From: Spirochaetota bacterium
Lineage (GTDB): Bacteria; Spirochaetota; UBA4802; JAFGJZ01
Direction of reading: 5' to 3'
NCBI GenBank assembly: GCA_016928815.1
Contig: JAFGJZ010000192.1
Span: 4,407-68,406, forward strand
Length of the DNA: 64,000 bases
The position numbers and the translations under genes are program-made. Under the pieces are notes generated by a model. It saw nothing but the letters and a program-made list of their open reading frames with translations, was not told the DNA's origin and did no database searches. Of this stretch, positions 8,137-51,299 are shown one piece after another; position 1 is the stretch's first letter, and every line of letters starts with the position of its first letter.

Positions 8137-8209
8137 CTGTGTAAATGATCGTAGATGGAAAATTGGAAGAAAGCATAACAAATCTGCATAAATGATACGG
8201 GAGAATATA

Positions 8210-8776
8210 ATGCCTTACTATTTTTTGATGCGTTCGCCAGGTGGGGATTATCAGTTATGTGACACGGATATGCCTCAACAGAAGAATGGGTTAAAAGAGA
8301 ATAGATTTATCAAAGGTTCAAAGATCAAATCGGAAGAGATTATGGAGCCTATTATAATTAATTTGCGATACATAGAAGATGTTATGCCTGAATTCTTTAT
8401 GTTTCCACTTGTATTTCGAGATGACCTGCTTGCTGATATATTGGAATTCGGAATTGAAAATATTGACAGCTATAAATGTACTTTACTGGATAACATATCA
8501 GGAAAAATCTGGACAGAGTATAAAGTGTGTAATATCATCGGAATGCTTGATGTATTTGATATGAATGCCTCAAAACTATTTGTGGATTCACCACGTGATG
8601 ATGCTTATCTATTTGATGAAATTGTAATAAATGAAAGCAAAGCATTAAATCAGCATATATTTCGCCCTTATGGACGTCCGTCTGATATTCTTATATCTGA
8701 AGAATTAAAGAACTATTTAGAAACAAAAAGTAAATATATTAACATGCAATTTGTTAAGCCAAAAAATTTTGCATAA
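8210..8776 (+). CDS. Paralog-family protein 3
   Basis: GGGAGA RBS upstream of ATG at 8210 (N-terminus MPYYFLM matches family M-x-Y-F start); conserved core motifs GIENIDSY, NIIGMLD, IFRP. Confidence 0.7.
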   Translation: MPYYFLMRSPGGDYQLCDTDMPQQKNGLKENRFIKGSKIKSEEIMEPIIINLRYIEDVMPEFFMFPLVFRDDLLADILEFGIENIDSYKCTLLDNISGKIWTEYKVCNIIGMLDVFDMNASKLFVDSPRDDAYLFDEIVINESKALNQHIFRPYGRPSDILISEELKNYLETKSKYINMQFVKPKNFA

Positions 8777-9045: not shown

Positions 9046-9987
9046 ATGGAGAAATTTATGAAAAAAATAATGACTGCTTTCATTTTTTTTGTCTCGCTGT
9101 CGGCCAATTCACAGCAGCCGGCAGATTCCGTTTATTATGACAATCTGGATGTTGTTCTAGGTAAAATTAAAAATACCAAATCCTCCATTCAGCAGGAGAC
9201 TCCCGGAGTTTTTACCGTGGAATTTAATGAAAACAAAAATAACTTCAAGCTGATGCTTACCCTTTATCCCGCTGATTCAAAAAGATTCACAGTTGAAAAT
9301 CTTAAGCAGGATCTGGCTGAAAAAGGAAAAGATCTTCTTCCAATGGCGGAAGAAAAAGAGCTTGTTATCAGCGATCTGAAAAAGGGATCCGAGACGAGAG
9401 GTTTCTTTTACATTCTGACAGATAAATCGCCTGCCAAAGGTGAATTTAAATATATTGCCCAGGGTTTTACCCGGTATAATTATCTAGTTGGATACTTTAC
9501 TTTTTTTTATAACAATAAAGATGATATCAGTATTTTCAACAGTATGGATATTACCGGTTTTGTAAAAGATACCGCTGAGATGAAAAAAACCGCGCATTTT
9601 GAAAAATTTAAACTTACCAAGGATGATATTTCTGATTACAATCTTGAATATAAACAGCATTTTTACAGTATGCAGCAGGTTATATTTTATAACAATACAG
9701 ATACATATACAACCCTGCTTTCGAACGCGGATGAAAAATATACACAGACAATCTGTTCCGGAAATGAGGAAGGAACCGTATTTTTTTATTTTTTCAGGGA
9801 AAAGCTTGATTCTGAAAAAACGGCATTTCTGACAGGGCTGTTTTACGGTGAAGAAGGGAAACCGCAGAAGGATCATCCTGAAATTATTTATGTAAAGGAT
9901 AATTATCTGGTAGTGTTTTCATATCCTTATAAAAGCAGACTTCAGGAATATCTTTTTAATAAAGTAAAAGAAAAATTTGAGAAATGA
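9046..9987 (+). CDS. Secreted hypothetical protein (313 aa; likely true start ATG 9058)
   Basis: Signal peptide MKKIMTAFIFFVSLSANSQQ; GGAGA RBS before second ATG; no recognisable domain. Confidence 0.6.
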   Translation: MEKFMKKIMTAFIFFVSLSANSQQPADSVYYDNLDVVLGKIKNTKSSIQQETPGVFTVEFNENKNNFKLMLTLYPADSKRFTVENLKQDLAEKGKDLLPMAEEKELVISDLKKGSETRGFFYILTDKSPAKGEFKYIAQGFTRYNYLVGYFTFFYNNKDDISIFNSMDITGFVKDTAEMKKTAHFEKFKLTKDDISDYNLEYKQHFYSMQQVIFYNNTDTYTTLLSNADEKYTQTICSGNEEGTVFFYFFREKLDSEKTAFLTGLFYGEEGKPQKDHPEIIYVKDNYLVVFSYPYKSRLQEYLFNKVKEKFEK

Positions 9988-10108
9988 AAATGGAATCCGG
10001 ATAATTTTTTTAATCCGGAGGACTGATCCCCTGTCACGGTCTCCGGCTAACCTGATGATCTTTCAGAAATAAAAAAGGTACAAACCGGACTTCTGACAGG
10101 CTGATAAA

Positions 10109-11317
10109 ATGATTAACAGGAATTTAAAGATGAAAAAAACGGGAGTAAATGAAAACACTGCAGGTAATGTTTCAGGAAGATTGTTCTATCTTGATAATCT
10201 GAAAATATTTCTTACCATGCTTGTGATTGTTCATCATGTCGGCCAGGCATACGGCCCGACCGGCGGATTCTGGCAGTACCGCAGCAGTCTGCATGAAAGC
10301 ATTCCATGGCTTGGAAGTTTTTTCGGAGTCAATGCCGGTTTTTTTATGGGACTGTTTTTTATGATTTCCGGTTACTTTCTGCCTTCGTCCTTTGACAGGA
10401 AATCATTTTCGGAATTTCTTAAGGAAAAGCTGATCCGTTTCGGCATACCTCTCCTGTTTGTTTTTACTGTGCTGCAACCCTTTCAAATGTATTTTTATTA
10501 CGTCAATTACAGCGGTAACCGTCCCATGGATTTTCTTTCATACTATATACATATATATTTCGGAGCGGGCGGCCGGCCTGACTGGTTTGCCGATTCCATC
10601 GGTTTTCCTGAAATGAATTTCGGTCATCTCTGGTTTGTCGAACATCTTCTTGTTTATTTCATCATCTATGCCGTTGTAAAAAAATATTTTATAAAAAAGA
10701 AAACAGAAGTAGTCCCGACAAAAATTACTTTCTTTCACATTATCGGACTTGGATTGCTGATTTCAATAACATCGGTTCTGATCAGAATTTTTTATCCCAT
10801 TGACAGGTGGACCGGTATTCTTGGTTTCATTCAGTCTGAACCGGCGCACCTTCCGCAGTATCTGCTGCTGTTTATCACAGGCGTTACTGCATACAGAAAA
10901 GACTGGTTGCGGCAGATTAAAACCTCAACGGGTATGCAGCTGTTGTCTGCCGGAGTAATGATGGCGCTGGTAGTATATTTTAACGGGTTTTTGCCGAAGG
11001 CTGTGATCAATATAGTATTTGAGGGCTGGAGTATTTATGAATCATTCATGGCTGTTTTTCTCTGTTTCGGTTTAACGGTGCTTTTCAGGGAACATGCAGA
11101 AAAATCATCTATGTTTATGAAAGCTGCATCCCGGAATTCGTATGCAGCATACATTATTCATTTTCCTGTCGTTCTGACAGTACAGTTTGCGCTTGATAGA
11201 GTAAATATATGCGGAGCTTACGGTAAATTTTTTACGGTAAGTATACTGTCTGTTCTGCTTTCATATTCTCTCAGCGCTCTCATCAGGAAAAGCTCACTTA
11301 TGCGGAAAGTATTATGA
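10109..11317 (+). CDS. Acyltransferase 3 family membrane protein
   Basis: 402 aa, ~10 TM segments; N-terminal LDNLKIFLTMLVIVHHVG motif of acyltransferase-3 (OatA/OpgC-like) family. Confidence 0.75.
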   Translation: MINRNLKMKKTGVNENTAGNVSGRLFYLDNLKIFLTMLVIVHHVGQAYGPTGGFWQYRSSLHESIPWLGSFFGVNAGFFMGLFFMISGYFLPSSFDRKSFSEFLKEKLIRFGIPLLFVFTVLQPFQMYFYYVNYSGNRPMDFLSYYIHIYFGAGGRPDWFADSIGFPEMNFGHLWFVEHLLVYFIIYAVVKKYFIKKKTEVVPTKITFFHIIGLGLLISITSVLIRIFYPIDRWTGILGFIQSEPAHLPQYLLLFITGVTAYRKDWLRQIKTSTGMQLLSAGVMMALVVYFNGFLPKAVINIVFEGWSIYESFMAVFLCFGLTVLFREHAEKSSMFMKAASRNSYAAYIIHFPVVLTVQFALDRVNICGAYGKFFTVSILSVLLSYSLSALIRKSSLMRKVL

Positions 11318-38583: not shown

Positions 38584-40086
38584 ATGAAAAAAGCAAAATG
38601 TATTGTTGATAAAAATCATTCTATAGCAAAAGCAGAGCCGGAGTTATTCGGCTCTTTTATTGAGCATCTGGGCAGAGCCGTATACGGCGGAATATATGAA
38701 CCTGAACATCCTCTCGCGGATGAGGACGGATTCAGAAAGGACGTTATAGATGCGGTTCATAAACTGAATGTTCCAGTCATCAGGTATCCCGGAGGTAATT
38801 TTCTTTCGGGATATAACTGGACTGACGGAATAGGTCCGAAGGAAAAACGCCCCCGGAGGCTTGAACTTGCATGGCACAGCATTGAAACAAATGCAATCGG
38901 TATTGATGAATTCGTAAAATGGGCCGCAAAAGCAAATTCAAAAGTAATGGGTGCCGTTAATTTAGGAACCGGAACTCCTCAGGAAGCAGCCAATCTCGTT
39001 GAATACTGCAATCATCCGGGAGGAACTTACTGGAGCGATTTAAGAATACAGAACGGATCCAAAGATCCGTATGATATAAAAATCTGGTGTCTCGGTAATG
39101 AAATGGACGGAGACTGGCAGATGGGGCAGTTATCTTCCGCTGATTACGCGAAAAAAGCGAAAGAAGCCGCAAAAATGATGCGTCTTGTCGATCCTGAAAT
39201 TAAACTTGTTGCATGCGGCAGTTCGGGGCCCGGAATGGCTACATATCCGGAATGGGACAGGGTTATACTTGAGTCACTTTATGAACAGGTGGATTTTCTT
39301 TCTCTGCATCAGTATTTTGAATACAAGGGTGATGTTCAGGAATTTATAGCTTCATTTTATGAAATGGATCAGTTCATCAAAACGGTCTCTGCAGTAACTG
39401 ATTATGTAAAAACCAAAACACGCAGCAAAAAAAACATGTATCTGTCCTTTGATGAATGGAACATATGGTATATGTCCCAGCAGCAGAAACATGACTGGCT
39501 TGAAGCTCCGGAAATTCTTGAAAACCGCTATACACTGCTGGATGCCTTAACCGTAGGCGGAATGATATGTTCATTACTGAATAATTCTGACAGGGTTAAA
39601 ATGGCCTGTCTTGCCCAGCTTATAAATGTTATCGCCCCGATTGTTACGGAAAAGAACGGCGGAATTTTCATTCAGCCCATATATTATCCGTTTTTTCAGG
39701 CGTCAGTTCATGCCTCAGGCGGAACAGTGCTTAAGTCGCTATCCACTATTCCTGAAATTGAAATTGAAAAATACGGTAAGGTTCCGGTTATTCAGAATTC
39801 AGTCATATATGACCGGGAAAAGAAGAAGCTTACAGTTCTTGCTCTTAACTGTGATCAGAAAGATACGGTTTCATTTGAGATTGATGCGCGGTCTTTCGGA
39901 AAAACGGTTCCTGTCGAACATCTGTGTCTGAAAGGAGATGATCTTTTTGCGCAGAACAGTTTTGAAAAACCTGAAAATGTTGTTCCATGCAATTTGGATA
40001 TTTCCGGGATTGAAAACAATTCAGGACATATTACAATTAATCTGCAGCCTTTGTCATGGAATGTCGTTATTTTTTCAACTGATTGA
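38584..40086 (+). CDS. abfA: Alpha-L-arabinofuranosidase, glycoside hydrolase family 51
   Basis: 500 aa; near-collinear match to Geobacillus AbfA: GSFIEHLGRAVYGGIYEPEHP, IRYPGGNFLSGYNWTDGIGP, CLGNEMDGDWQMG. Confidence 0.9.
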   Translation: MKKAKCIVDKNHSIAKAEPELFGSFIEHLGRAVYGGIYEPEHPLADEDGFRKDVIDAVHKLNVPVIRYPGGNFLSGYNWTDGIGPKEKRPRRLELAWHSIETNAIGIDEFVKWAAKANSKVMGAVNLGTGTPQEAANLVEYCNHPGGTYWSDLRIQNGSKDPYDIKIWCLGNEMDGDWQMGQLSSADYAKKAKEAAKMMRLVDPEIKLVACGSSGPGMATYPEWDRVILESLYEQVDFLSLHQYFEYKGDVQEFIASFYEMDQFIKTVSAVTDYVKTKTRSKKNMYLSFDEWNIWYMSQQQKHDWLEAPEILENRYTLLDALTVGGMICSLLNNSDRVKMACLAQLINVIAPIVTEKNGGIFIQPIYYPFFQASVHASGGTVLKSLSTIPEIEIEKYGKVPVIQNSVIYDREKKKLTVLALNCDQKDTVSFEIDARSFGKTVPVEHLCLKGDDLFAQNSFEKPENVVPCNLDISGIENNSGHITINLQPLSWNVVIFSTD

Positions 40087-40461
40087 AAGCAGCATTTAAT
40101 CCGGAAAATTCCATTTTTCCGGCGGAAATAAAATTACGCTTAATACTGCAGCTTATGCCGGGCATTTTACCCGGCTTTTTAATATCAGCTTGAAAGTTAT
40201 GATAATTCATCTTCCATGACTGGTTAATGGTCTTCGCTTTACCCGCTTATTTCTTCCAGATTACTTTCTCCATTGGAAATGATGGAATATACAGTCTAAA
40301 TTTCAAATCAATAATTGAAGCAGAAGGTGAAATTTTCGTAAGATTTGATTTTTTTACGAAAAAAGTCAAATAAACCGCCCTGAAAGTTTCATTTTAATCA
40401 AGAAAGAATTTTTTTTGTATTATAAATTATCTTTTAAATATATAATGAAAAGAGGATAATT

Positions 40462-40935
40462 ATGGAATTAACGGAAATCGGTAAAATTAATCAGCAGGAT
40501 GGACTTTTCAGTATTCAGCTTCATGAGAAATATAAAAAAGGACTGACAAATATTGAAGGGTTTTCTCTGTTAAATATTTTATGGTGGGCGGATCAGACTG
40601 AAGATGAAGCATATGGAAGTGATTATGTAATCAGGAAACCTTATGTAAAAGGTCCGGAGTCTATTGGTGTTTTTGCAACACGGTCGCAAATCCGGCCGAA
40701 CCCTGTCTGCATAACACCGGTTTCTGTCTTCAAAATTGATCAGGCTGCCGGAATCATCTATACTTATTATATTGATGCATTTCCGGGATCTTCAGTTATT
40801 GACATTAAACCGTATTTGCCTTCGACAGATATTGCAAAGAATGTTTCAGTACCTGAATGGTGCAGTCATTGGCCGGACAGCATCGATTCTTCCGCGGATT
40901 TTGACTGGGAAGCTGAGTTTAATTTTCCTGTATAG
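40462..40935 (+). CDS. TsaA/TrmO-family SAM-dependent methyltransferase-like protein
   Basis: 157 aa; GVFATRSQIRPNPVCITPV and DIKPYLP motifs of UPF0066/TsaA domain. Confidence 0.7.
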   Translation: MELTEIGKINQQDGLFSIQLHEKYKKGLTNIEGFSLLNILWWADQTEDEAYGSDYVIRKPYVKGPESIGVFATRSQIRPNPVCITPVSVFKIDQAAGIIYTYYIDAFPGSSVIDIKPYLPSTDIAKNVSVPEWCSHWPDSIDSSADFDWEAEFNFPV

Positions 40936-40950
40936 TGCATAATCTGTAAT

Positions 40951-41826
40951 TTGGAGATGGAATGGATGAAGAACAAGGATATCGTTTATTCGGCTCTTGA
41001 ACTGATAGAAGAAAATTTAAAAAGCGACATTGACGTCTGTTCCGTCTCCCAGAAATTCGGATTTTCGCTTTACTATTTCAGCCGTCTTTTTAAAGGAATC
41101 ACCGGATATACTTTAAAAGATTACATCCTGCTGAGAAAAATCAGCGAATCATATAATGATCTGATTAAAACCGACAAAAAAATTATTGATATCGCATTTG
41201 AATACGGGTTTGGTACGCATGAATCCTACAGCAGGGCGTTTAACCGTATTATAGGATTGAATCCTTCCCGGGCAAGAAGGCAGGAACGGTTTTCTCCTGA
41301 GAATCTGATTTCTCCATTATCCGGGAATATTATCGAAAATAGGAGAAGAAAAACGCTTTTAGAACCTGAAAAGGTAGAGCTTGAAGAAATACAATTGATT
41401 GGCATTCCTTTTTACTTTGATCTGGCTTTGCAGAATGATTTAAGCAAACCCTGGGCTAATCTCAGTGCGAATGCATTTCTCATAGAGAACAGGCTGATTC
41501 CTGAAAAATATTACCAGCTTCAATACTGGTTTGCTGATCAGGAGCCGGATCTGTTTTATTTTTTCATAGCGGTTCAGGTTGAAAAGATAGAAAACATTCC
41601 GCTTCAATTTACAGCAAAAATTATTCCGAAACAGAAATATCTGAAGTTTCTCCATAAAGGAAGATCAAATACCGTCGGTTTAACCTATCAGTATATTTAT
41701 AACACATATCTGCCGGAGACTGATTTCCGTTTGCCGTATTTATATAATTTTGAACTATACGGTAATACCTTTCTCGGACCCTGCAATGATGACTCTGTCA
41801 GTGAAATTTACATTCCTTATGAGTGA
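40951..41826 (+). CDS. AraC-family transcriptional regulator with GyrI-like effector-binding domain
   Basis: N-terminal AraC HTH pair (VSQKFGFSLYYFSRLFK...IAFEYGFGTHESYSRAF) + C-terminal ~160-aa GyrI-like domain. Confidence 0.8.
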   Translation: MEMEWMKNKDIVYSALELIEENLKSDIDVCSVSQKFGFSLYYFSRLFKGITGYTLKDYILLRKISESYNDLIKTDKKIIDIAFEYGFGTHESYSRAFNRIIGLNPSRARRQERFSPENLISPLSGNIIENRRRKTLLEPEKVELEEIQLIGIPFYFDLALQNDLSKPWANLSANAFLIENRLIPEKYYQLQYWFADQEPDLFYFFIAVQVEKIENIPLQFTAKIIPKQKYLKFLHKGRSNTVGLTYQYIYNTYLPETDFRLPYLYNFELYGNTFLGPCNDDSVSEIYIPYE

Positions 41827-42016
41827 GTTCAAGTAGAGGAAAAACTTATCTTAATTAATTTTTTGTTTGAAAATATTTTCTTTCATTATATTTACAGAAC
41901 TGTGAAACTGCAGTGGTGTTATAAAGTTGTTTTACATGACGGACATGTCTGTAATAGAAAAGCTGCATTTACTAAGACCGATCATATGACATGATTTAAC
42001 TGAAAGGGATATTATT

Positions 42017-42418
42017 ATGAAGAAAATGGATTACATCGGATTACTGTTCAGCTTACTGCTTCTTTTATATTTAATCGCGATTGCAGTTACTTATAAAAGT
42101 GAATATGATGTATACCGGTATATAATAAATCATGCCGTTTTGGATTTAACTTTCGGAATTACCGGCATGCTCGGCATTATTGCAGGCCCGCTATTACTGA
42201 TTATTTCCTATGTTAAAAAAAGAAAATCCGGAACTGAAATTATTAAATCCATAACACCTTTAATTGCAGGTTTAATGATGTTTTTAATTATGTCAGCAGT
42301 CTGGGTAATATTTTTTAAACACTTTTCCCTGAGACTGTTTTGGATTCCCGGATTATATTTAATCCTCTGTTTGATTACTGTATTTTACACCAAAAACATG
42401 CGTAAAAAATCTGAATAG
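42017..42418 (+). CDS. Hypothetical membrane protein (4 TM)
   Basis: 133 aa, hydrophobic helices, basic C-terminus. Confidence 0.45.
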   Translation: MKKMDYIGLLFSLLLLLYLIAIAVTYKSEYDVYRYIINHAVLDLTFGITGMLGIIAGPLLLIISYVKKRKSGTEIIKSITPLIAGLMMFLIMSAVWVIFFKHFSLRLFWIPGLYLILCLITVFYTKNMRKKSE

Positions 42419-42799
42419 GTTTATTATCAGTTATTTAATATATTTTCTCAAATAGAATCATCGGAAGGATTTTAGGAAATTAAATTCATACTTCCATACA
42501 AATTTACCGGCAGAACCGACTCAACCCGGATACTGCCTTTAAATCTGCCTGCAGGCTTCAGCCCAGCGTTGATCATCAGACATTGGACTCATTTTTTTAT
42601 AAACTTGACATTTCATAAAATTGCTGTATTTATTAAACAGAATTAGAACTGTCTGAATTCTGAACATATGAAGTTAAGTTCAATATTTTCTGCCGGGCTT
42701 TATTTGAAGGCGTTTGACCACAGTCCATAGCGGGCGGAAGAAAGTGAAAAGAATAAATGTTTATATGTTTGATATACCTGAAAGAAACCGGATGTATAA

Positions 42800-43276
42800 A
42801 TGACTGGAAATTTAAAACTTGATAAAATCCTTTGGCAAGCGGCAGATAAAATTCACAAAAATATGGATGCGGCTGAATATATGCATGTTGTATTAGGTTT
42901 AATATTCCTGAAATATATACCAGATGCTTTTGGAGACTTATATCAAAAATTGGAAACTGCAAAACAGGAAACCGGTGCAGACCCGGAAGACAAAGATGAA
43001 TACACGGCGGAACGGGTTTTGTATGGTCCACAACAGGTTTGCTGGAAATGGCTGCAAGGCAGAGCCAATCTGTCAACTATCGGCAAAGGCATTCGTTCCT
43101 TAAAAGGGGTATTGCCTAAAGATTATGCCCGTCCTTCACCCGACAAACAAAGGTTTGACGTACTGATTAATCGTAAGCAAAAGTTTACAGCAATGCTTTC
43201 CGAACAAATGCAAAAAGCGAATGAACTGGATGATTCAATAAAAAAGAACTTGGCGAAAACCGGCTATGAAATCTGA
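42800..43276 (+). pseudogene. hsdM: Type I restriction-modification HsdM remnant (N-terminal domain fused to C-terminal tail; methyltransferase core deleted)
   Basis: [34 protein letters not shown] and [12 protein letters not shown]...DKQR match the HsdM N-domain. The ORF ends after only 158 aa with a coiled-coil-like tail ([17 protein letters not shown]). The catalytic N6-MTase domain is absent. Confidence 0.6.
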
Positions 43277-44195
43277 CAGTAAAATATCCATACGCTTTTT
43301 TGACGACCGTGAGGTTCGGGCACTCTGGGATGAAGAAAAGTCCAAATGGTGGTTTTCCGTATTGGACATAGTGGCAGTGCTTCGGGACCAGAGTGATTAT
43401 AATAAAAACCGCAACTACTGGAAATACCTTAAAGCAAAACTGAAGCAGGAAAACAGGCAGTTGGTTAGCGCCACTACCCAACTGAAACTCACCGCTGCAG
43501 ATGGTAAAAAATACAAATCCGATATGCTCGATTACGAAGGTATTATTGCTTTGGGTAAAGAATTTCCAAGTAAAAAAGCCAACCGTTTTATTGAATGGTT
43601 TACCTATAGTGATGAGACTATTGATGGTAAAAGCAAAACCAAAGCCTATGCATTTTTTGAAAGTTCATTTATTGACAGTATAGAAGTGGGTACTACAAGA
43701 GGATTGCAGCAGATACACGCCTATTTGTTTGGAGGACTCTATGACTTTGCAGGGCAAATCCGGCAGAAGAATATATCTAAAGGGGGATTTCGTTTTGCCA
43801 TGGTACAACACCTTGAGCAGACCCTGCAACAGATTGACCAAATGCCTGAAACCACTTTTCAGGAAATAACTGATAAATATGTGGAGATGAACATCGCCCA
43901 CCCTTTTATGGAAGGTAATGGCAGAAGCACACGAATTTGGCTCGATATGATACTGAAAAAACGGTTGAAGCGCTGTGTGGACTGGAGCCGTATTAGTAAA
44001 AACGACTACATGGACGCCATGGTACAAAGCCCGGTGAATAGCACACCGCTAAAAACTCTTATTAAAAATGCCCTGACAGACGAAATAGACAGCCGGGAAA
44101 TGTATATGAAGGGCATTGATTATTCTTATTATTATGAAGAGAGTCAGAATCATGATTCGGTTGAGTTTCCTGATAATCAGGGTGCAGATGTATGA
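43266..44195 (+). CDS. Fic-family protein with N-terminal Bro-N/RhuM-like DNA-binding domain
   Basis: Fic motif [14 protein letters not shown]; N-terminal [29 protein letters not shown]; start overlaps hsdM-remnant stop. Confidence 0.85.
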
Positions 44196-44245
44196 GCGAT
44201 TGGGAAACATATATGTTGGGGGATTTAATAACTCCCGTTCGTTAA
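44192..44245 (+). pseudogene. hsdS: hsdS 5' stub (17 codons) overlapping fic stop
   Basis: [17 protein letters not shown] resembles conserved HsdS N-terminus (W-x-x-x-LGD); ATGA overlap with fic as in intact hsdM-x-hsdS operons. Confidence 0.4.
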
Positions 44246-44570
44246 GTGACATATAAAAACTGCAGTATGGAAATTTCATGAGCTGGAATATATTCTTTTC
44301 ATCATATGCTCAAGTTTCCGCGGCAATTGTTGGGATAATCTCTGGTCTGTCTAAAAGCTTTGATGAGTAAATAATTTTAGGGTGCTTTTTATTGCAGGAT
44401 AAATTTTTGATGAGTTTTATCAGGCGCTATCCGGATTTTTTGAAATTATAGTTGATTTTTTTTGGTGAGTTTGCAGTATTATTGCTGTAGTAGGAATTAT
44501 AGTTTTTACAATAAATTGTAACCTCAAAATATGCAAATCGAAATTAATACTCAACTTTAAGGAAATATTT

Positions 44571-45122
44571 ATGGAATATTTTATAATGGATGAAGTTGCA
44601 GGTAATCCTTATATTCCTTACATTGGTGATCTGCCAGAAGAGTTAGATATGATAGATGTAGCTATCGGAAAAAAAGTTGATATCAACGATGTCCCAATTC
44701 AATTACCTGTAAGCATTGGAGACGTATCAGAAGTTGAATACCCTGACTTATTAACTGGAAATGTCCCATTGTTTTCTGAGAAACTGAAGTTCGCTTTAGA
44801 TGAAACTGGAATTGATAATATCGATTATTTTCAAGTTGATCTTATCAACGAAGAAGATGGGAAAACTGTTGCTAAATATTATCTTGGAATTGTTATTGGA
44901 TTGATAAAATGTCTAAAAAGTGGTTTAACGTCAAGCCCTGCGGGCAGAGACATTTTAAAGAACCCGGTAATAGATTTTTCCCTTGTTCGCGGTCAAAAAC
45001 TTTTTCGACTTGCGGAATCGCCATTATTAATTATTGTTGATTCGAGCGTAAAAGATGCTCTTTCAAAGATTAATCTTCAAGGTGTCTCACTGCTTCGATT
45101 GAAGGATTATGAAAGTTTTTAG
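44571..45122 (+). CDS. Paralog-family protein 4
   Basis: 183 aa; MEYFIMDE start, GIDNIDYF, IVIGLI, KLFRLAES, SVKDAL motifs shared with 6462/7058/8210 genes. Confidence 0.7.
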   Translation: MEYFIMDEVAGNPYIPYIGDLPEELDMIDVAIGKKVDINDVPIQLPVSIGDVSEVEYPDLLTGNVPLFSEKLKFALDETGIDNIDYFQVDLINEEDGKTVAKYYLGIVIGLIKCLKSGLTSSPAGRDILKNPVIDFSLVRGQKLFRLAESPLLIIVDSSVKDALSKINLQGVSLLRLKDYESF

Positions 45123-45286
45123 GATTCGAAAACATTTTTTGACATCCAAACATTTTATGTTCAATCTTTCAAAAACATGAACTTTAATAATAGATCCGGG
45201 AATTCATTTCCCAACCCATTAGCAAAAGAAGGAAAACAGCACGTTAAATTTGTTTATATTCTTTGCAATTTTATTGGAGATTTTTT

Positions 45287-45835
45287 ATGTACTGGGTCAT
45301 AGAAGCAGATTTACAGGTTAAAGGTTTAGCATCTATCATGGACTTACCGGATGACATTGAAGGCATGGAATGGATGTGTGGTAAAGAAATGCCTGATCGA
45401 AAACAACCAATATCACTTAATTTAAACCGTGGAAGCGGTTCTTTTCGCGGTGATATAATGGGTGGAATTTTACCATTATACTCAGATGACCTTAGAGATC
45501 TGTTTAATGAATATGGCATAAATAATATACAATATTTTCCTGTGGATATAACTGATACAATTCTGAATGAAGTTGAATATGGTTATTCATTGGTAAATAT
45601 AATAGGGTTAATTTCCTGCGTAAAAAATTATGATTTTAATTTATCTCCGCTTGCACGTCCTTCAAGTCTTGAAAAATTTTCAATTGATCCAGCCAAGACT
45701 TTTAATCTTCCAATTTTTCGTCTTTTTGAATCTCGTCGTTTAATAGTAATAAATGACGACTTGCGGAATTATTTATCTGATAAAGGACTTGCGGGTGTAA
45801 GAATAACAAAGACTGAAGAATATACTGTCTGGTAA
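45287..45835 (+). CDS. Paralog-family protein 5
   Basis: ORF extends to 45263 but family alignment supports the MYWVIEAD start (45287); GINNIQYF, NIIGLI, IFRLFESRRLIVIND motifs. Confidence 0.7.
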   Translation: MYWVIEADLQVKGLASIMDLPDDIEGMEWMCGKEMPDRKQPISLNLNRGSGSFRGDIMGGILPLYSDDLRDLFNEYGINNIQYFPVDITDTILNEVEYGYSLVNIIGLISCVKNYDFNLSPLARPSSLEKFSIDPAKTFNLPIFRLFESRRLIVINDDLRNYLSDKGLAGVRITKTEEYTVW

Positions 45836-46011
45836 AGAATAGAAATATTCCTCAAAATTATTTGCAATTGGATACACTTCAATTGCTGCCCTAACAAATC
45901 TGTTATGCAGAAAACAGCAGATTGAGGACAAAGTGAAAAATTCAAACTGTATCTTTCGTATGGAATTAAACAATACGCTTAACATTGCTTTTTACGAAAC
46001 CAGGCTGTTTG

Positions 46012-47133
46012 TTATTTATCTGCCATTGCGAGGGATCTGATCACTTTCAGATATTCGCCATTCCTGTCACCTTTGGTCGGGGCGATCCAGGCTCCTTCTC
46101 CGTATTCGTTCCAGGCACAGATTAATATTACATGTTCATCCGGCGTCTGTTCGGGATGTGTTTTAATCCAGCTTACTGCTTTTTCCAGAAACTGCCGGAA
46201 TAAAGCAGGCGTTCTTCCTGTGTAATACCAGCCTTCCCTTTTATTAAAAAGCCCGTTTGGTCCTTCCCACGGTCTTTTATCAAACCCGGCTGTCACCACC
46301 GGAATATACGGCTGCTCGCTGCTGCCCCGCCATTCATTTTCAGCTGCGGTAATCAGTTCCGCATAAGAATGTTTTTCGGCACCGTCTTCATATCCGTAAG
46401 ATATCATATAATGAGTTCTGTATTGATACCCCTGTTCAGGAGTTCCATACCAGTTGCAGGCAATTGCAAGTCCGGGGAGACCGGCATCACGGGCTGCTTT
46501 CTGCATTCTGTCAAAACCGGCCTTGTCACCTCCGGCACCGTTGAATATGATAACAAGCGGTTTGCCGTTGATTTTCAGATACTGCTCGTGAGTCAGGTAC
46601 GGCATCAGATATTGTGCTGCAGCTTCCCAGTTTTCCGGTCCTGTAATTTCAAACCAGTCATGATTTGCTATCATCAGACAGAACTGCATTCTTTTGCTGT
46701 TTCCGGATTTTAAAAACAGATCCAGCCCCGTATTTTTCGGATCATCACGTATTGCATTTTCATTAATACTGCTTTTATTATCATGCCAGAACCAGCAGAA
46801 TGAAAAAAATGCCAGACCGTTATCGGCAGCGGTATCTATCTGCTGTTCCATTATCTCCAGACTGTCATCCCTCCAGCCCCATACCGGTTCGCGTTCCGGA
46901 AATTCTTCAAGCATTCTCCGTGTAAGATGCAGCGGAGCGTTTTCTGCCCAGGGCTGATCAGGATCGCCTGAAAGATTGTTTTTTCCAGCCCAGCCGTCAA
47001 AATAATATGCACCAATACACAGATCAGGGTTTCTTACCTTTTCGCTGTTTTTCCGTATTCTTCCGCTACAAAACATAATGCCGGCTAACATAACCGCTGC
47101 AAAGATGATTAGGTATTTCATGATATACTCCAC
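46012..47133 (-). CDS. Secreted glycoside hydrolase family 99-like / WbsX-like protein
   Basis: Signal peptide; C-terminal ICAWNEYGEGAWIAP resembles NEW-EG motif of WbsX/GH99-like domain; low certainty. Confidence 0.45.
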   Translation of the reverse strand: MEYIMKYLIIFAAVMLAGIMFCSGRIRKNSEKVRNPDLCIGAYYFDGWAGKNNLSGDPDQPWAENAPLHLTRRMLEEFPEREPVWGWRDDSLEIMEQQIDTAADNGLAFFSFCWFWHDNKSSINENAIRDDPKNTGLDLFLKSGNSKRMQFCLMIANHDWFEITGPENWEAAAQYLMPYLTHEQYLKINGKPLVIIFNGAGGDKAGFDRMQKAARDAGLPGLAIACNWYGTPEQGYQYRTHYMISYGYEDGAEKHSYAELITAAENEWRGSSEQPYIPVVTAGFDKRPWEGPNGLFNKREGWYYTGRTPALFRQFLEKAVSWIKTHPEQTPDEHVILICAWNEYGEGAWIAPTKGDRNGEYLKVIRSLAMADK

Positions 47134-47402
47134 AGAAACAGCATTTTTTATCAGACATGCCGGAAGTTATTTACGGCTGATATCTGTCATAATGATGAGA
47201 GTAATTCATTGTCAGTTATAGATTTCATAATGCAATAATTATGATATTCTTCTGTTATATTTTATGCAATATTGAAAAACAGGTCAAGATAATTATACGA
47301 TGTATATGCTGATGCTTTTTTAACATTTAGGAACCGGGTTCGCTCGTTGTTTAAATACAAATAAAATCCGCAATTAATTTCATGATTTTAAAGAACTGAT
47401 AA

Positions 47403-48128
47403 TTAATTCTGTTTGATTATTTCGCCAAGCGGACTGACAGCTTCATATAAATCATCAGCTGTAATAATGATTTTTTTTGATATTCTGAAATCTCCTTTTT
47501 TAAGTGCACTCGCAATCCATGTGTTGCATGTATTGAACAAATGATAACTGTAGACGGATTTGTAGAAAACCGTATTTCCGGAACCGTTTGATGAAAGTTT
47601 AATGAACATGCCTGAATTGTCATGTTTGAATGATCCGTTTATGAAACTGCATATTCTGTCAAACTGAGCGGACGACGCGGTAAAGCGAATGGAGTATATG
47701 CAGTATTTTGTGATGCTGTCTACTGACATGTCCGTACCGTGAACTCTGACAGTGCTTGAAGACGGAACGAAAAGAGCCTTTAGAGTGAGATATATCCCGC
47801 CTGTACCGGCCTGATAATAGTCGGCATCACCCCAACCGAAATCTGCATAAGCAAATTGACGGAATTCTGAAAGAACACTAATTTTTCTGATTGTTTCATC
47901 TGTAATTCTGATGACGATACCGGTATGCAGGCCGTTGTTGACGACATAGAAAGTACCGGCCTGTATGTCATCAGTATTTACATCTGCAGTTGATGAAACA
48001 GCAGAGAATATAAATAAACTCAGAAGAACGGCATATTTCAGCAGAAAACTTTTTTTTGACATAAGAAATATTAACACACGTATAAATAAAAAGCATATAA
48101 AAATTAAAAAAATAATATTTATTTTCAT
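47403..48128 (-). CDS. DUF2459-like membrane/secreted protein
   Basis: N-terminal hydrophobic segments; HTGIVI...FAYADFGWGDADYYQ core reminiscent of DUF2459/TIGR02117 family; from recollection. Confidence 0.4.
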   Translation of the reverse strand: MKINIIFLIFICFLFIRVLIFLMSKKSFLLKYAVLLSLFIFSAVSSTADVNTDDIQAGTFYVVNNGLHTGIVIRITDETIRKISVLSEFRQFAYADFGWGDADYYQAGTGGIYLTLKALFVPSSSTVRVHGTDMSVDSITKYCIYSIRFTASSAQFDRICSFINGSFKHDNSGMFIKLSSNGSGNTVFYKSVYSYHLFNTCNTWIASALKKGDFRISKKIIITADDLYEAVSPLGEIIKQN

Positions 48129-48301
48129 TACAAAAAGATGAATCAGGCATGGTGAAATAAATCCGCATTAGAAATAAATTTTAATTGATTTATAATTAAT
48201 ACAGTGATAGATTGTCTTAAGTAAAGCAATTTTACATGCAGCATTCATTTTTAAATTCATACATTAGTTAGTATTCGTAAAATTCAGTCCGGAGGCATCA
48301 T

Positions 48302-49351
48302 ATGGATGGTAATTTACTTGAGTTAATTAATGAGTATCATGAAAGAAATGAACATGCCGAAGTAATAAACAGGATTCTTTCGCTTAAAAAACAGAATCTT
48401 GACTACACGATGACTTTTTATCTCGCGAATGCATACAGCAGTGTTGATGAACATGAACATGCCGTCAGTCTTCTTTTAAAGGTAAGGCATGAAGGTGAAC
48501 AGGATCCGGAATGGCACTGCCGTCTTGCCAGAGCCTATTCAGGACTGAATAACTATGCGAAAACGGTATATCATTCCGAAGCCGCGGCCGCTCTTGATAA
48601 AAGCCGTGTCAGTGAACTGTCTGAAATACTTGCAGAGGCTTATGCAAAATCAGGATGTCTGAAAAAGGCGAAAGAACTTGTCGACAGATATGATCTGAAA
48701 ATTTTCAGTCCCGAAGTGTATACTGAAAATGAACTGAGTGCAGTCAGCCGGCATATTGAGCGTCACTTCGGAAAGGTGAGCCGGGTTCTGCACGAAGTCC
48801 TGTCTCCCGACATCAGGGTTGATATCATGGTTGTCGAACCTCAGAACGGAAGAAATTATCTGACGCTTGTTACTTCCGGAATGGGTGCGCATAAAATGAA
48901 TGTACCGCAGAATCTGCTGAACCGGAATGTTGACCGGGCGGAATTAATAATGTGTCTTCCTCCTGAATGGGATATCGGTAGCATCAGCGGAAACTGGTTC
49001 TGGCCGCTACTGTGGATGAAGATAATGGCCAGACTTCCGATTAAAGAAGACAGCTGGCTGGGGTGGGGGCATACTGTTCCGAACAGCTGTGCGTTTGCCG
49101 ATAATACATGTTTATCCGGAATATTTCTTGATCATCCCCATAGTTCCGGTGAGGAATCATTTGCCTGTAAACTGAATACGGGAGAAGCGGTTAATTTTTA
49201 TCAGATGATTCCGCTGTATGACGAGGAAATGGAATATAAAATCATGTACGGAACATCCGCGCTTCTCGGTCTTGTAAACGGTAATTTCCCGGAGATAGTG
49301 GATGTCCGCCGGAAAAATTTCTGCAGCGGAAACACGGATATAATACATTGA
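48302..49351 (+). CDS. TPR-like N-terminus + SUFU-like (suppressor-of-fused) domain protein
   Basis: C-terminal half (LVTSGMGAHKM...ELIMCLPPEWD...WPLLWMK...WLGWGHTV...FLDHP...GEAVNFYQMIPLYDEE) fits bacterial SUFU-family architecture; cytoplasmic. Confidence 0.55.
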   Translation: MDGNLLELINEYHERNEHAEVINRILSLKKQNLDYTMTFYLANAYSSVDEHEHAVSLLLKVRHEGEQDPEWHCRLARAYSGLNNYAKTVYHSEAAAALDKSRVSELSEILAEAYAKSGCLKKAKELVDRYDLKIFSPEVYTENELSAVSRHIERHFGKVSRVLHEVLSPDIRVDIMVVEPQNGRNYLTLVTSGMGAHKMNVPQNLLNRNVDRAELIMCLPPEWDIGSISGNWFWPLLWMKIMARLPIKEDSWLGWGHTVPNSCAFADNTCLSGIFLDHPHSSGEESFACKLNTGEAVNFYQMIPLYDEEMEYKIMYGTSALLGLVNGNFPEIVDVRRKNFCSGNTDIIH

Positions 49352-49365
49352 GGGAAATTTGAATT

Positions 49366-50355
49366 TTATTTTTCTATCCTTAATTTTCTGATTATTTCTC
49401 CGGCGATGATTTCACTGTAACTGTCAGGTTTCCATGTCATGACGGTCCACCCTTTCAGGAAGCGGTGGAAATCCGTCCAGGCATAACGGTACATCTCCCT
49501 CCATTCCTTTTCTACATCTGCAAAATTGATTTCAGGTTTATGCTTCCTTAATGATTTTTCCAGACATGAAAAATAAAAATCCAGAAGTTCATCCTCCATT
49601 GCACCGCATTCACTTTCATCCAGACAGCTTCCTATGAAGTATGCAATATCCTTCATGCCGCATCCTCCGCCGGTGTACTGAAAATCCACCGCGGCTACTT
49701 TTTTACCGTCATCAGAAAAGCAGAAATTATCAAGTTTAGCATCACCGTGAAGTATTGTTTTAAAATTACATTTCTTAAGTTTGAGATCTATTGAAGCTGC
49801 CGCAGCCTTCAGTTCCGGATCCCTGAGCGCCTTATACTCATCCGGACGCGTGTCAAGATGCCAGTATGTTCCGTTTTTCCATAAATTCACGGGTTCACGG
49901 TTCATGAAAATTGAATGAAATTCCGCCAGCCATTCAATACAGATTCCGATTTCATCAGGGGAAGGCCTGCTTCGCCGCCCGGGATATCCTGCCGCGTCAA
50001 GATCTTCAAGCACAGTCAAAAATTCATTGCCGCCGAATTCCAGGGCATAACATCCGGGTATGCGGCAGAAAGGTCTGCATTCATCCGACCAGTGCCGGTA
50101 CCAGGCTGCCTCCACCATGTAGGATTTAATTTTCCGCCGGTGAGAAATGTCTGATTCTGCGAAGTCATGGCCTTTTTTATTTTCAGGAAGTACGACGTGT
50201 TTTACCACTACGGTTTTTATCTTTGAACCGGAAAGGGTGTAGCGGCTTATTCTGCCGTAGCCGCTCCAAAGACTCTGAATTTCCTCAATTTCACTTATTG
50301 ATGCAGAACCGGTTGATTTGAGGATTACGTTTCTGAAACTGTTATTCATATTCAC
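49366..50355 (-). CDS. Phosphotransferase-family protein (APH/choline-kinase-like)
   Basis: HGDAKLDNF catalytic loop and DFQYTGGGCGMKD (DFG-like) motif. Confidence 0.7.
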   Translation of the reverse strand: MNMNNSFRNVILKSTGSASISEIEEIQSLWSGYGRISRYTLSGSKIKTVVVKHVVLPENKKGHDFAESDISHRRKIKSYMVEAAWYRHWSDECRPFCRIPGCYALEFGGNEFLTVLEDLDAAGYPGRRSRPSPDEIGICIEWLAEFHSIFMNREPVNLWKNGTYWHLDTRPDEYKALRDPELKAAAASIDLKLKKCNFKTILHGDAKLDNFCFSDDGKKVAAVDFQYTGGGCGMKDIAYFIGSCLDESECGAMEDELLDFYFSCLEKSLRKHKPEINFADVEKEWREMYRYAWTDFHRFLKGWTVMTWKPDSYSEIIAGEIIRKLRIEK

Positions 50356-50573
50356 TGACTGTTAATTTCCCTGTTTTATATTCATTTTCGGAAAATGCTT
50401 TCATTATGCAAGCTGTTTTACAATTCTCATTTCCAGGAAAAATTCATGGAATTCTGAAAATTCAATATGTTTCGTGAATGTTAAATGAGATTCAATTCCG
50501 GTATTTTACCGCAATAAGTATTGAAATGCCGGCATAATGGAATAATGTGCATATGCACAATTGGAGGAAATTT

Positions 50574-51299
50574 ATGAAAAAAATAATTACGGCAGTAATC
50601 CTTGTTTCAGCAGCATGTTTATGTCTTTCCGCTGAAGAAATATACCTTGCTTCCGGAGCCGGATACAAGCGTCCGGTAAATGAAATTGCACAGACATTTA
50701 AAAAGGAAACTTCTATCACCGTAAACTGCATATACGGCAACATGAATCAGATAATTGCTCAAAGCAAAAAAACGGGTAAAGTGTCTCTTATGATTGGAGA
50801 CAGCAGTTTTTTAAAAAAATCAGGAATTAGTTTCGTTAAAAAGCAGGAACTTGGAAAGGGAAAGCTTGTTCTTGCATTTCCGGAAAAAATAAAAATTACT
50901 TCCATTGAGGATCTGCTTAAAACAGACATTAAGAAAATAGTACTTCCTGACGGGACAAAGGCGATTTACGGCAAAGCGGCTTTTGAAGCATTAAGCGCAG
51001 TTAATATTCATGAGAGGCTGAAAGAATCTGACAGACTGCTCGTTGTACAGACTGTGCCTCAGGTGACTGCCTATCTTTCATCCGGTGAAGCGGATGCCGG
51101 TTTTTTGAACATTACTGACTGTATGTCTCTTGATAATAAGAAATTTTCCTATATTGAGATTGATAAAAAGCTTTACAGTCCGATAGTAATTGAATGCGGA
51201 TTAACTTCATCCGCAGATGAAAATTCCGTTAAATTTTATGACTATCTGAAATCTGATTCCGCTGCGGCGGTTTTCAGGAAGTACGGTCTGTCGGAATGA
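50574..51299 (+). CDS. modA: Molybdate ABC transporter substrate-binding protein ModA
   Basis: Signal peptide; C-terminus VKFYDYLKSDSAAAVFRKYGL parallels E. coli ModA ...FYDYLKGPQAAEIFKRYGF; GGAGGA RBS (ORF extends to 50547). Confidence 0.85.
   Translation: MKKIITAVILVSAACLCLSAEEIYLASGAGYKRPVNEIAQTFKKETSITVNCIYGNMNQIIAQSKKTGKVSLMIGDSSFLKKSGISFVKKQELGKGKLVLAFPEKIKITSIEDLLKTDIKKIVLPDGTKAIYGKAAFEALSAVNIHERLKESDRLLVVQTVPQVTAYLSSGEADAGFLNITDCMSLDNKKFSYIEIDKKLYSPIVIECGLTSSADENSVKFYDYLKSDSAAAVFRKYGLSE

Follow-up and report, generated by a model that had tools for sequence, protein, structure and literature searches.

The region at positions 42,800 to 45,835 of a 64,000-nt stretch of DNA from a Spirochaetota bacterium MAG (GCA_016928815.1, contig JAFGJZ010000192.1, positions 4,407–68,406 of the forward strand; hereafter the window) contains a short ORF that begins like HsdM, a Fic gene, and a very short ORF that begins like HsdS, followed by two genes that resemble each other. 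The question raised by this arrangement is whether these elements are what is left of a type I restriction-modification (R-M) operon and, if so, which of them is still functional. We conclude that the locus is very probably an eroded, horizontally acquired type I R-M operon with the layout hsdM-[fic]-hsdS(-hsdR), with the Fic gene as the remaining functional unit. The features are collected in Table 1. The original prediction of a decayed type I R-M locus was borne out by comparison with an intact hsdM homologue, relative to which the hsdM of the window is internally deleted in frame, and its ORF coordinates were all confirmed.

Table 1. Features of the eroded locus and related genes in the window, with the evidence for each.
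Feature	Position	Strand	Basis
Upstream leader of hsdM remnant	42700..42799	+	Homologous to DNA upstream of intact L010 hsdM; left edge of R-M-derived DNA
hsdM remnant, 158 aa	42800..43276	+	HsdM_N profile match and alignment to L010 HsdM
Fic gene, 309 aa	43266..44195	+	Pfam Fic, NF046029, NmFic structures, PDC-S04 profile
Bro-N-like domain of Fic protein	Residues 16-113		Pfam PF02498, 24.8 bits (cutoff 25.6)
Class III NmFic-type Fic domain	Residues 117-292		NF046029, PDB NmFic alignment
Fic active-site motif	H212-R223, nt 43899-43934		Form HxFx(D/E)GNGRxxR
Putative C-terminal inhibitory motif of Fic	S287-YYY-E291, nt 44124-44138		Aligns to NmFic SYYYE
Fic 17-aa tail, non-homologous	nt 44142-44192		Comparison with relatives
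hsdS 5′ stub, 17 codons	44192..44245	+	Match to hsdS starts; right edge of R-M-derived DNA
Spacer, 325 nt	44246..44570	.	Between R-M remnant and Imm11 genes; no detectable homology
Imm11-family immunity-protein gene, 183 aa	44571..45122	+	Pfam PF07791, 35.2 bits (cutoff 22.1)
Second paralogue, Imm11-like (182 aa if read from ATG 45287; 190 aa if read from TTG 45263)	45287..45835	+	32% identity to the first
Imm11 paralogue	6462-7061		PF07791, 35.8 bits (cutoff 22.1)
Imm11 paralogue	7058-7609		PF07791, 42.6 bits (cutoff 22.1)
Imm11 paralogue	8192-8776		PF07791, 29.2 bits (cutoff 22.1)

Remnants of hsdM and hsdS

The 158-aa ORF matched the Pfam HsdM_N profile with 54.8 bits (cutoff, 24.5); no Pfam match to N6_Mtase was found in it, and its score against TIGR00497 was 15.2 bits (cutoff, 242.75). 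The closest intact homologue found is the 510-aa HsdM of locus L010, which has both the HsdM_N and N6_Mtase domains. Relative to this protein, the remnant consists of residues ~1-97, 109-135, and 477-510; its N-terminal part aligns with residues 1-135 of L010 HsdM at 72% identity, and its tail corresponds to residues 477-510. An origin from HsdM is therefore indicated both by the N-terminal domain and by a C-terminal tail that overlaps the next gene. At the nucleotide level, the window and L010 are 76-83% identical, with gaps of 33 and 1023 nt. The smaller deletion (11 codons) has its junction near 43095/43096, and the larger (341 codons) within 43168-43177, positions that are accurate to a few bases only, L010 being a 72-89% relative and not the true ancestor. 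Both deletions are in frame, so that the internal deletion of hsdM originally predicted is present but as two deletions, not one. Residues ~136-476 are gone, and with them the whole N6_Mtase core, including the AdoMet-binding motif I (DGCCGSGG) and motif IV (NPPF).

Homology to L010 also extends upstream of the remnant, beginning at 42763 by blastn and reaching ~42700 by MAFFT alignment. In this leader, TATGTTTG at 42764-42771 fits the promoter consensus TAnnTTTG (−7), which is of the Bacteroidota type although the host is a spirochaete. Both the window and L010 have the motif at −36. A scan for sigma-70 promoters and terminators gave no signal above chance. The conserved motif may function as a promoter, and fic may be expressed from this hsdM promoter. 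The end of the remnant overlaps the start of fic by 11 nt (43266-43276). L010, L027, and L095 have retained this overlap (GGCTATGAA.TCTRA), and fic may be translationally coupled through the remnant ORF.

At the other end of fic, the stop codon overlaps the ATG of the 17-codon ORF as ATGA. The original prediction had taken this ORF for an HsdS-like N terminus and would have been refuted by a failure to align to HsdS N termini; it was found that the ORF aligns to hsdS starts located at the same position in L010 and L021. The homology covers the first 11-12 codons (M-x-D-W-x-x-Y-x-L-G-D/E) and reaches ~44224; the codons beyond that point, stop included, have no relation to hsdS. Specifically, 33 nt of the stub align at 85% identity with the beginning of the L010 hsdS ORF at 9759 (MNDWKKYKLGEI...), and L021 has MSEWIEYKLKDF... 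at the same position, in an ORF that matches Pfam Methylase_S from profile position 1. The stub alone gave no Pfam hit to Methylase_S, with or without read-through residues, and nothing in a phmmer search of PDB, because it is too short. Its identity as the 5′ end of hsdS rests on these syntenic hsdS starts. A phase-variable shufflon (invertible hsdS segments) was also considered and rejected, the repeat search having given short, chance-level matches only.

The absence of hsdR was confirmed within the 64 kb: a tblastn search of the window with three HsdR reference proteins gave nothing (best E 0.16), and the window contains no other hsdM, hsdS, or hsdR homologue. A functional type I R-M system is thus not encoded in the window, as its HsdM lacks the N6_Mtase domain and there is neither an HsdS with two TRDs nor an HsdR.

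Similar erosion was found in related loci. Intact hsdM precedes fic in L010 and L027; head-plus-tail remnants with differing junctions precede it in the window, L021, and L095; and tiny footprints of the hsdM tail are present at fic in L044, L025, and L011. Stubs of the hsdS head comprise 17 codons in the window, 11 in L010, and 6 in L090. Head-plus-tail hsdM remnants also lie directly upstream of other cargo (HEPN/MNT, DUF1016, and ORF6N-AbiH-RhuM), and in total such a remnant stands in front of Fic or other cargo at seven or more loci besides the window, the breakpoints being all different. A fully intact locus of the exact arrangement hsdM-fic-hsdS-hsdR was not recovered: the L010 contig ends inside hsdS and the L027 contig after fic, and a search of metagenome DNA for the pattern of a Fic end plus an MS[DE]W start returned one match (L090), with the 6-codon stub only. 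The erosion of this R-M locus is ordinary gene decay, which recurs with different breakpoints in unrelated bacteria.

A sequence of events can be proposed in which an hsdM-[fic]-hsdS(-hsdR) operon would have been acquired horizontally by the Spirochaetota bacterium and later eroded. The two in-frame deletions took away 11 codons from the N-domain of HsdM together with all of its methyltransferase core; hsdS was cut after ~11 codons, and hsdR was lost from the locus. Retained were the 5′ end of hsdM with its predicted promoter, the ~34 codons at the 3′ end of hsdM, and the embedded fic.

The constrained Fic gene

The Fic protein matched the Pfam Fic domain with 51.2 bits and NF046029 with 278 bits (cutoff, 230) over model positions 3-177 of 177. 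The PADLOC PDC-S04 model PDLC04841 was matched with an E value of 3.8e-164, residues 5-293 of the protein aligning to positions 3-291 of the 292 in the profile. The N-terminal domain had been described as Bro-N/RhuM-like; the PF02498 (Bro-N) score fell just below the cutoff of 25.6 bits, and a RhuM-like domain was not detected. The same residues also match the N-domains of PADLOC PDC-S13 and PDC-S05.

The original prediction had called fic intact, which needs qualification. To judge from its sequence, the gene is apparently functional and constrained: the protein deviates at 3 of 179 conserved columns (median in relatives, 2), and its dN/dS relative to L010 is ~0.04, a rough value, as are those of the other segments, since dS for fic is 1.5 (near saturation) and the hsdM tail has 34 codons only. 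Constraint on fic stands against relaxation of hsdM. The C terminus, in contrast to that of all 80 relatives, is different from nt 44141 on. The relatives end in ...SYYYEEN(D)*, whereas in the window the last 1-2 residues, directly after the inhibitory motif, have been swapped for the 17-aa tail, which could change the regulation or stability of the protein. The 51-nt extension weakly resembles the leader upstream of the L010 hsdS (24 of 40 nt; 16 of 500 shuffles scored as well), and a derivation from that leader is suggestive only.

GyrB is the AMPylation target of NmFic. By close homology to NmFic, the window protein would be a self-inhibited AMP-transferase, in which the C-terminal helix (S287-x3-E291) would prevent ATP from binding productively. 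Once this inhibition is lifted, the enzyme would AMPylate GyrB or another target, with growth arrest as the outcome. The enzymatic activity, the target, and any role in phage defense are predictions.

The Bro-N/Fic gene is very mobile and very conserved, with at least 548 copies among species representatives and 75-89% amino acid identity across phyla. Of the 80 fic loci closest to it, just 13 have any type I R-M gene nearby, so that the association of fic with R-M is not a strict one.

Alternative explanations and the right-hand junction

The original prediction would have been refuted had the 158-aa protein belonged to a known stand-alone family. No conserved family of ~158 aa was found, and the reading of a decayed hsdM stands: no other protein joins it in its 90% cluster, it represents itself in the 50%-identity library, and the look-alikes among the best 150 representatives are no more than scattered. 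Because similar head-plus-tail remnants have different breakpoints, the protein is not a member of a conserved stand-alone family. It was nevertheless considered whether it could be a functional mini-HsdM, made of the N-domain and the C-terminal helix, that would, for example, regulate Fic, work with it as a partner, or act as a decoy for type I enzymes. The ORF is in frame, translatable, and predicted to be translationally linked to fic, and short HsdM head-and-tail proteins recur in databases (P0003, P0038, P0048, P0146, P0243, and P0265), with a cargo gene directly downstream in all six loci examined (the P0243 locus being left out). However, the junctions all differ (135|477, 139|481, 98|~438, 113|~487, and 105|478), the L021 remnant is out of frame, and the recovery of in-frame cases by a protein search is an ascertainment effect. 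Furthermore, the remnant deviates at 10 of the 57 near-invariant (≥95% conserved) N-domain columns, whereas the median among homologues is 1 (n = 121), and 11 further N-domain residues are missing; other deleted forms of hsdM also have excess deviations, 5-6 each. The remnant therefore looks like a pseudogene, and a functional mini-HsdM is very unlikely. We regard as possible, if doubtful, that the head-plus-tail remnant is selectively kept as a translated leader ORF, which would deliver a promoter and ribosomes to the cargo via the conserved 11-nt overlap. If true, this would be a general route to autonomy for R-M-embedded genes (Fic, HEPN/MNT, DUF1016, AbiH, and others) after the death of the host system, and it would account for the same erosion pattern, with different breakpoints, across phyla.

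The deletions and junctions could also be artefacts of assembly or binning, in the form of a chimeric MAG contig joined across the conserved fic. This gene is 73-83% conserved at the nucleotide level across phyla, and the break between the two Logan contigs of run SRR13394437, which are 100% identical to window positions 38983-43928 and 43901-51122, falls exactly inside the conserved active-site motif; they overlap by 28 nt only (43901-43928), so that the join rests on the MAG assembly and the shared nearest relative. Against this, both hsdM deletions are within one contig (L001), which reproduces the remnant at 100%, and the stub, spacer, and Imm11 genes are contiguous in the other, L094, in which the stretch 44245-44570, singled out earlier for an assembly check, is unbroken. 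L010 is the nearest relative for the 5′ half of fic (81.9%) as well as for the 3′ half (83.5%), and the ORF is continuous across the join. Although the MAG and Logan assemblies are probably from the same reads and not fully independent, we consider a chimera extremely unlikely.

To the right of the stub, the two paralogues that had been predicted to follow a non-coding gap are present, and they are identified here as Imm11 immunity proteins. They are 32% identical (tblastn E 2.6e-17), and the second (45263-45835) gave no direct Pfam hit; NCBI annotates its 182-aa form. The spacer contains no convincing ORF and no Rfam match, nor was there an Rfam match anywhere in 42300-46000, and for 44226-44570 neither a repeat nor any homology was found within the window, its other Imm11 cluster included, or among the 80 loci of relatives. 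The Imm11 gene at 44571-45122 is a neighbor of the R-M remnant and not part of it, and we know of no link between Imm11 proteins and R-M or Fic.

It had been suggested that the accessory genes replaced the 3′ part of the locus, that is, that the Imm11 genes, or DNA carrying them, were inserted into an intact locus and physically displaced hsdS and hsdR. The hsdS homology does stop abruptly at ~44225; unrelated DNA fills the next 345 nt, up to the two Imm11 genes, and the GC content falls from 0.42 to ~0.33. However, the junction has neither repeats (direct or inverted) nor a recombinase or transposase gene on its flanks, nothing homologous to the spacer is present at the other Imm11 cluster, and no empty-site relatives were found, all clusters being singletons. 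The reverse order, in which a truncated R-M fragment landed beside resident Imm11 genes, fits equally well, and the right-hand neighbors are quite different at the parallel eroded loci L021, L095, and L090. Replacement is rather unlikely, and what is observed is adjacency alone.

Comparison with known systems

These findings will not surprise a specialist, but they change the annotation of the locus: the HsdM N-terminal domain protein becomes a pseudogene remnant, the Fic gene a solitary PDC-S04/NmFic-type module, and two hypothetical neighbors Imm11 immunity genes.

With class I FicT/FicA (VbhT/VbhA), the window Fic has in common the Fic fold and the logic of an inhibitory glutamate. It differs in that there is no separate antitoxin gene, the putative inhibitory motif being in cis and C-terminal, and the VbhT and EcFic models scored far below their cutoffs. 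Separately, the relative L042 has an ORF, weakly VbhA-like and with an HTH, that shares 11 nt with the start of fic.

The similarity to NmFic (the class III protein of Neisseria meningitidis; PDB 2g03, 3s6a, and 5cgl) is much closer. The Fic domain aligns end to end (E 4e-72 with 3s6a), the active-site motifs have the same form, a C-terminal SYYYE stretch aligns with the inhibitory motif of NmFic, and the NCBIfam equivalog cutoff is passed. In contrast to NmFic, the window Fic has an additional ~115-aa N-terminal Bro-N-like domain and its unique 17-aa C-terminal tail, and in this protein and nearly all 80 relatives, its whole subfamily, the Glu of the putative inhibitory motif is followed by E instead of the G/N of (S/T)xxxE(G/N).

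The window Fic is also a full-length match to PADLOC PDC-S04, here in an eroded and not an intact host locus. To our knowledge, PDC-S04 has never been shown to defend. It is a defense candidate only, and one deletion test in a native host had no effect (10.1101/2024.12.20.629700).

PrrC in EcoprrI is a cargo gene embedded in a type I R-M operon. The concept of embedded defense genes in such operons has been described by Payne et al. (bioRxiv 10.1101/2024.01.29.577857). The locus described here has the same order, hsdM-cargo-hsdS, with the start of the cargo overlapping the hsdM stop, and the exact arrangement with an intact hsdM is found in the nearest relatives L010 and L027. The difference is that the host system is dead, with no methyltransferase core, ~11 homologous codons of HsdS, and no HsdR in the window, and PrrC-like control of the cargo by the R-M complex is impossible at such an eroded locus. 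The erosion series shows that genes carried as cargo inside type I R-M operons can outlast the host system, which bears on the counts of embedded versus solitary candidates in defense-island surveys and on whether embedded cargo needs the R-M complex at all.

Remains of hsdM upstream of the fic gene

DNA derived from a type I restriction-modification (R-M) system occupies approximately positions 42700-44225 of the window, which comes from a MAG labelled Spirochaetes/Spirochaetota bacterium, and the positions of all ORFs in the original prediction were exactly confirmed. The NCBI proteins MBN1501848-51 are named 'type I R-M subunit M N-terminal domain-containing protein', 'Fic family protein', and two 'hypothetical proteins'.

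Positions of the R-M-derived ORFs and neighbouring genes in the window
Feature	Position	Length	Remark
Ankyrin-repeat protein	5116-6237		adjoins first Imm11 cluster
Imm11 gene	6462-7061
Imm11 gene	7058-7609
Imm11 gene	8192-8776
hsdM remnant ORF	42800-43276	158 aa
Fic gene	43266-44195	309 aa	start overlaps hsdM-remnant stop by 11 nt
hsdS stub ORF	44192-44245	17 codons	ATG overlaps Fic stop as ATGA
Gap 3' of stub		325 nt
Imm11 gene	44571-45122		paralogous gene after the gap
Imm11 gene	45263-45835		paralogous gene after the gap; start 45263/45287
SUFU-domain protein	48302-49351

As had been predicted, the 158-aa ORF contains the N-terminal domain of HsdM without the methyltransferase core: HsdM_N was the sole Pfam match (54.8 bits), N6_Mtase was absent from the same scan, and the HsdM equivalog model gave 15 bits versus a cutoff of 243. 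A scan of the genome collection with the Fic protein recovered a locus in a Cloacimonadota MAG (L010), in which the same fic gene follows an intact 510-aa HsdM (HsdM_N and N6_Mtase), again with 11 nt of overlap. Between the window and L010 the DNA is 76-83% identical, beginning ~40-100 nt before the hsdM ATG and continuing through fic. It was found by nucleotide alignment to L010 that what had been taken for one internal deletion is two, both in frame: one of 33 nt (11 codons; junction near 43095/43096, in the context ...TIGK[DIDEAMDSIERDNA]...) and one of 1023 nt (341 codons; junction within 43168-43177), the latter taking out HsdM residues ~136-476 and with them all of the catalytic core, DGCCGSGG and NPPF included. 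The last 34 codons of the remnant align to the HsdM C-terminal tail. The remnant shows relaxed constraint; it was off consensus at 10 of the 57 N-domain columns with a conservation of 95% or more in a set of 121 homologues, which themselves deviate at a median of 1 (95th percentile 5), and the dN/dS of its tail relative to L010 was ~0.7, over 34 codons only.

An alternative to decay is that the 158-aa protein belongs to a known stand-alone family, and the database does contain short proteins that combine the HsdM head and tail (P0003, P0038/43/44, P0048, P0146, P0243, and P0265). The window protein forms a 90% cluster by itself and stands as its own representative in the 50%-identity library, and nearly all of the best 150 of 5182 matches align to the N-domain only. 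In L010 numbering, residue 135 is joined to 477 in the window, and 139 to 481, 98 to ~438, and 113 to ~487 in the head-plus-tail database proteins; in L021, a Saprospiraceae locus found via fic and not via the protein, 105 is joined to 478, out of frame. Because all of these junctions differ, the head-plus-tail proteins are independent deletion products and not a conserved family, and the in-frame state of the database examples is an ascertainment effect. The reading of a decayed hsdM therefore survives. In another of the database matches, P0133 (195 aa), the HsdM N-domain appears by eye to be fused in frame to an HsdR-C-terminal-like region; in that case, most of a type I operon was crossed by one deletion.

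The Fic gene and its altered C terminus

Residues 117-292 of the Fic protein align end to end with the NmFic structures of N. meningitidis (E 4e-72), and the protein passes the NCBIfam NmFic equivalog (278 bits vs. 230). The active-site motif is present, and the C terminus carries the class III inhibitory motif SYYYE. In class III Fic proteins, the C-terminal Glu blocks productive ATP binding, and relief of this block leads to AMPylation of targets such as GyrB and then to growth arrest. The N-terminal domain had been described as Bro-N/RhuM-like; residues 16-113 are Bro-N-like at 24.8 bits, under the cutoff of 25.6, whereas no RhuM match to the N terminus was found.

The window copy looks functional because its ORF is continuous, it is off consensus at 3 of the 179 conserved columns, where relatives deviate at a median of 2, and its dN/dS was ~0.04 relative to L010. 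The prediction of an intact Fic holds for this conserved ORF with its active-site motif but not for the C terminus. The DNA homology of fic to all 80 relatives ends at 44140, and the relatives' proteins end in ...SYYYEEN(D), whereas the window copy carries a different end, so that a 17-aa foreign tail follows the auto-inhibitory helix directly. This tail bears only a weak similarity to the L010 leader that precedes hsdS, its score being reached by 16 of 500 shuffles. The Fic copy would be expressed and active, serving defence or addiction, with the new tail tolerated.

Two Logan contigs, from a second assembly (run SRR13394437) that probably shares reads with that of the MAG, are 100% identical to window positions 38983-43928 and 43901-51122. 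The first contains both hsdM deletions, and the second contains the stub, the spacer at 44246-44570, and the Imm11 genes. The break between them is a 28-nt overlap (43901-43928) exactly at the conserved Fic active-site motif, which the MAG contig bridges, and the k-mer at this point is probably common to other Fic genes in the sample. L010 is the nearest relative of both fic halves (81.9% and 83.5%), and this speaks against chimerism at the join within fic.

The hsdS stub and the Imm11 genes

Pfam profile and PDB searches with the 17-residue stub gave no match, such a length being too short for detection, and its identity was therefore judged by synteny with hsdS starts in relatives. The L010 hsdS ORF starts at 9759 (MNDWKKYKLGEIAELRKEQ...), is at least 352 aa long, and runs off the contig end; window positions 44191-44223 match this start at 85% over 33 nt. 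The ORF after fic in L021 begins MSEWIEYKLKDFAQLRKEQ...; its Pfam Methylase_S match starts at profile position 1, and it shares 62% identity with L010 HsdS. Because the stub has the start M-x-D/E-W-x-x-Y-x-L-x-D/E-L/I/F in common with both and then diverges (ending in ITPVR), it is the first ~11 codons of hsdS, which bears out the predicted HsdS-like N terminus. Likewise, the hsdS body and hsdR are missing as proposed: neither these nor a second hsdM were detectable anywhere in the 64 kb.

Two paralogous genes do follow the gap, and their family, to which no name had been given, is Imm11 (PF07791), which comprises immunity proteins. The five Imm11-family genes sit in two tandem clusters. No toxin gene was identified in the window stretches scanned, and the window may hold an orphan immunity-gene repertoire; no link of the Imm11 or SUFU genes to R-M or Fic was found. 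Replacement of the 3' part of the R-M locus by Imm11 genes is therefore no more than a possibility, since neither flanking repeats nor mobile-element genes were found at the junction, the spacer had no homology to the other Imm11 cluster, and there is no close relative by which to order the events.

Erosion around fic in other genomes

The Bro-N/Fic family is highly conserved and very widely distributed: at least 548 loci in GTDB species representatives carry the gene, and the 80 best matches (75-89% protein identity) come from Bacteroidota, Chlorobiota, Cloacimonadota, Chloroflexota, cyanobacterial (Pseudanabaena), CPR (Gracilibacteria), and archaeal (Altarchaeum) MAGs. Such cross-phylum similarity would reflect very strong constraint coupled with broad horizontal transfer, or else a degree of contamination from binning. 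Across L014-L089, synonymous sites are close to saturation. Recognisable type I genes lie near fic in only 13 of the 80 loci, in differing arrangements (hsdM-fic-hsdS, hsdS-fic-hsdR, and hsdS-fic-hsdM). At one fic locus (L042:7565-8011), fic starts 11 nt before the end of a 148-aa ORF that has a winged-helix HTH and a weak VbhA-antitoxin-like match (23.1 bits, below cutoff); a trans-acting partner may therefore exist for certain copies of this class III Fic as well.

Several unrelated genomes carry the same fic gene amid R-M debris. The hsdM gene is intact in L010 and L027; a head-plus-tail remnant is present in the window, in L021 (a chromosome with a 181-aa hsdS fragment, without hsdR), and in L095 (152 aa, same 11-nt overlap, without hsdS); and a few hsdM codons are left in L044, L025, and L011. 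Stubs of the hsdS head occur in L010 (11 codons) and L090 (6 codons), and an hsdS C terminus with an hsdR fragment in L030. Other cargo directly follows head-plus-tail hsdM remnants elsewhere: HEPN/MNT (L002, L097), DUF1016 (L007), and ORF6N-AbiH-RhuM (L096). L092/L093:6201-7747 is a further eroded locus, where an AbiEii gene overlaps a 248-aa 3'-truncated hsdM and unrelated polysaccharide genes come next. Read most simply, deletions sparing the promoter-proximal hsdM end and the stop/start overlap would keep the cargo expressed and would therefore survive; conceivably, selection also maintains the remnant ORF as a coupling leader for the cargo gene.

A sigma-70 promoter scan gave nothing above chance. 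The sequence TATGTTTG (42764-42771; L010 6443-6450), 36 nt upstream of the hsdM ATG in both loci, matches TAnnTTTG, the Bacteroidota -7 promoter consensus, whereas the host is a spirochaete, and L095, L007, and L091 have comparable motifs 29-43 nt upstream. The retention of this Bacteroidota-type motif is a hint of an FCB-group origin for the cassette.

A 24-codon chimeric ORF after fic in L010 (8887-8961) consists of the first 11 hsdS codons (MSDWKIYTVDE) and an end resembling the hsdM tail, SIKQHLAKIGYGI. This end and the ATG of a Y1/IS200-like transposase gene overlap just as the hsdM tail and fic do; the real hsdS (9759-10814) starts 870 nt further on. From this chimera, it looks as if cargo cassettes were stacked or swapped via recombination between the conserved hsdM tail and hsdS head.

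The overall observation of the original prediction is confirmed and the core of its interpretation is right, with corrections on three points: the number of deletions, the altered Fic C terminus, and the identity of the paralogs as Imm11 genes, whose part in a replacement is unproven. The repeated erosion seen elsewhere is a by-product of modest interest. The full-length Fic matches the PADLOC phage defence candidate PDC-S04 (E 3.8e-164). The PDC candidates trace to genes that lie inside R-M type I, BREX, and DISARM loci (10.1101/2024.01.29.577857), and knockout of a PDC-S04 gene in its native host gave no defence phenotype (10.1101/2024.12.20.629700). The locus is ordinary defence-locus erosion around a known candidate gene family.
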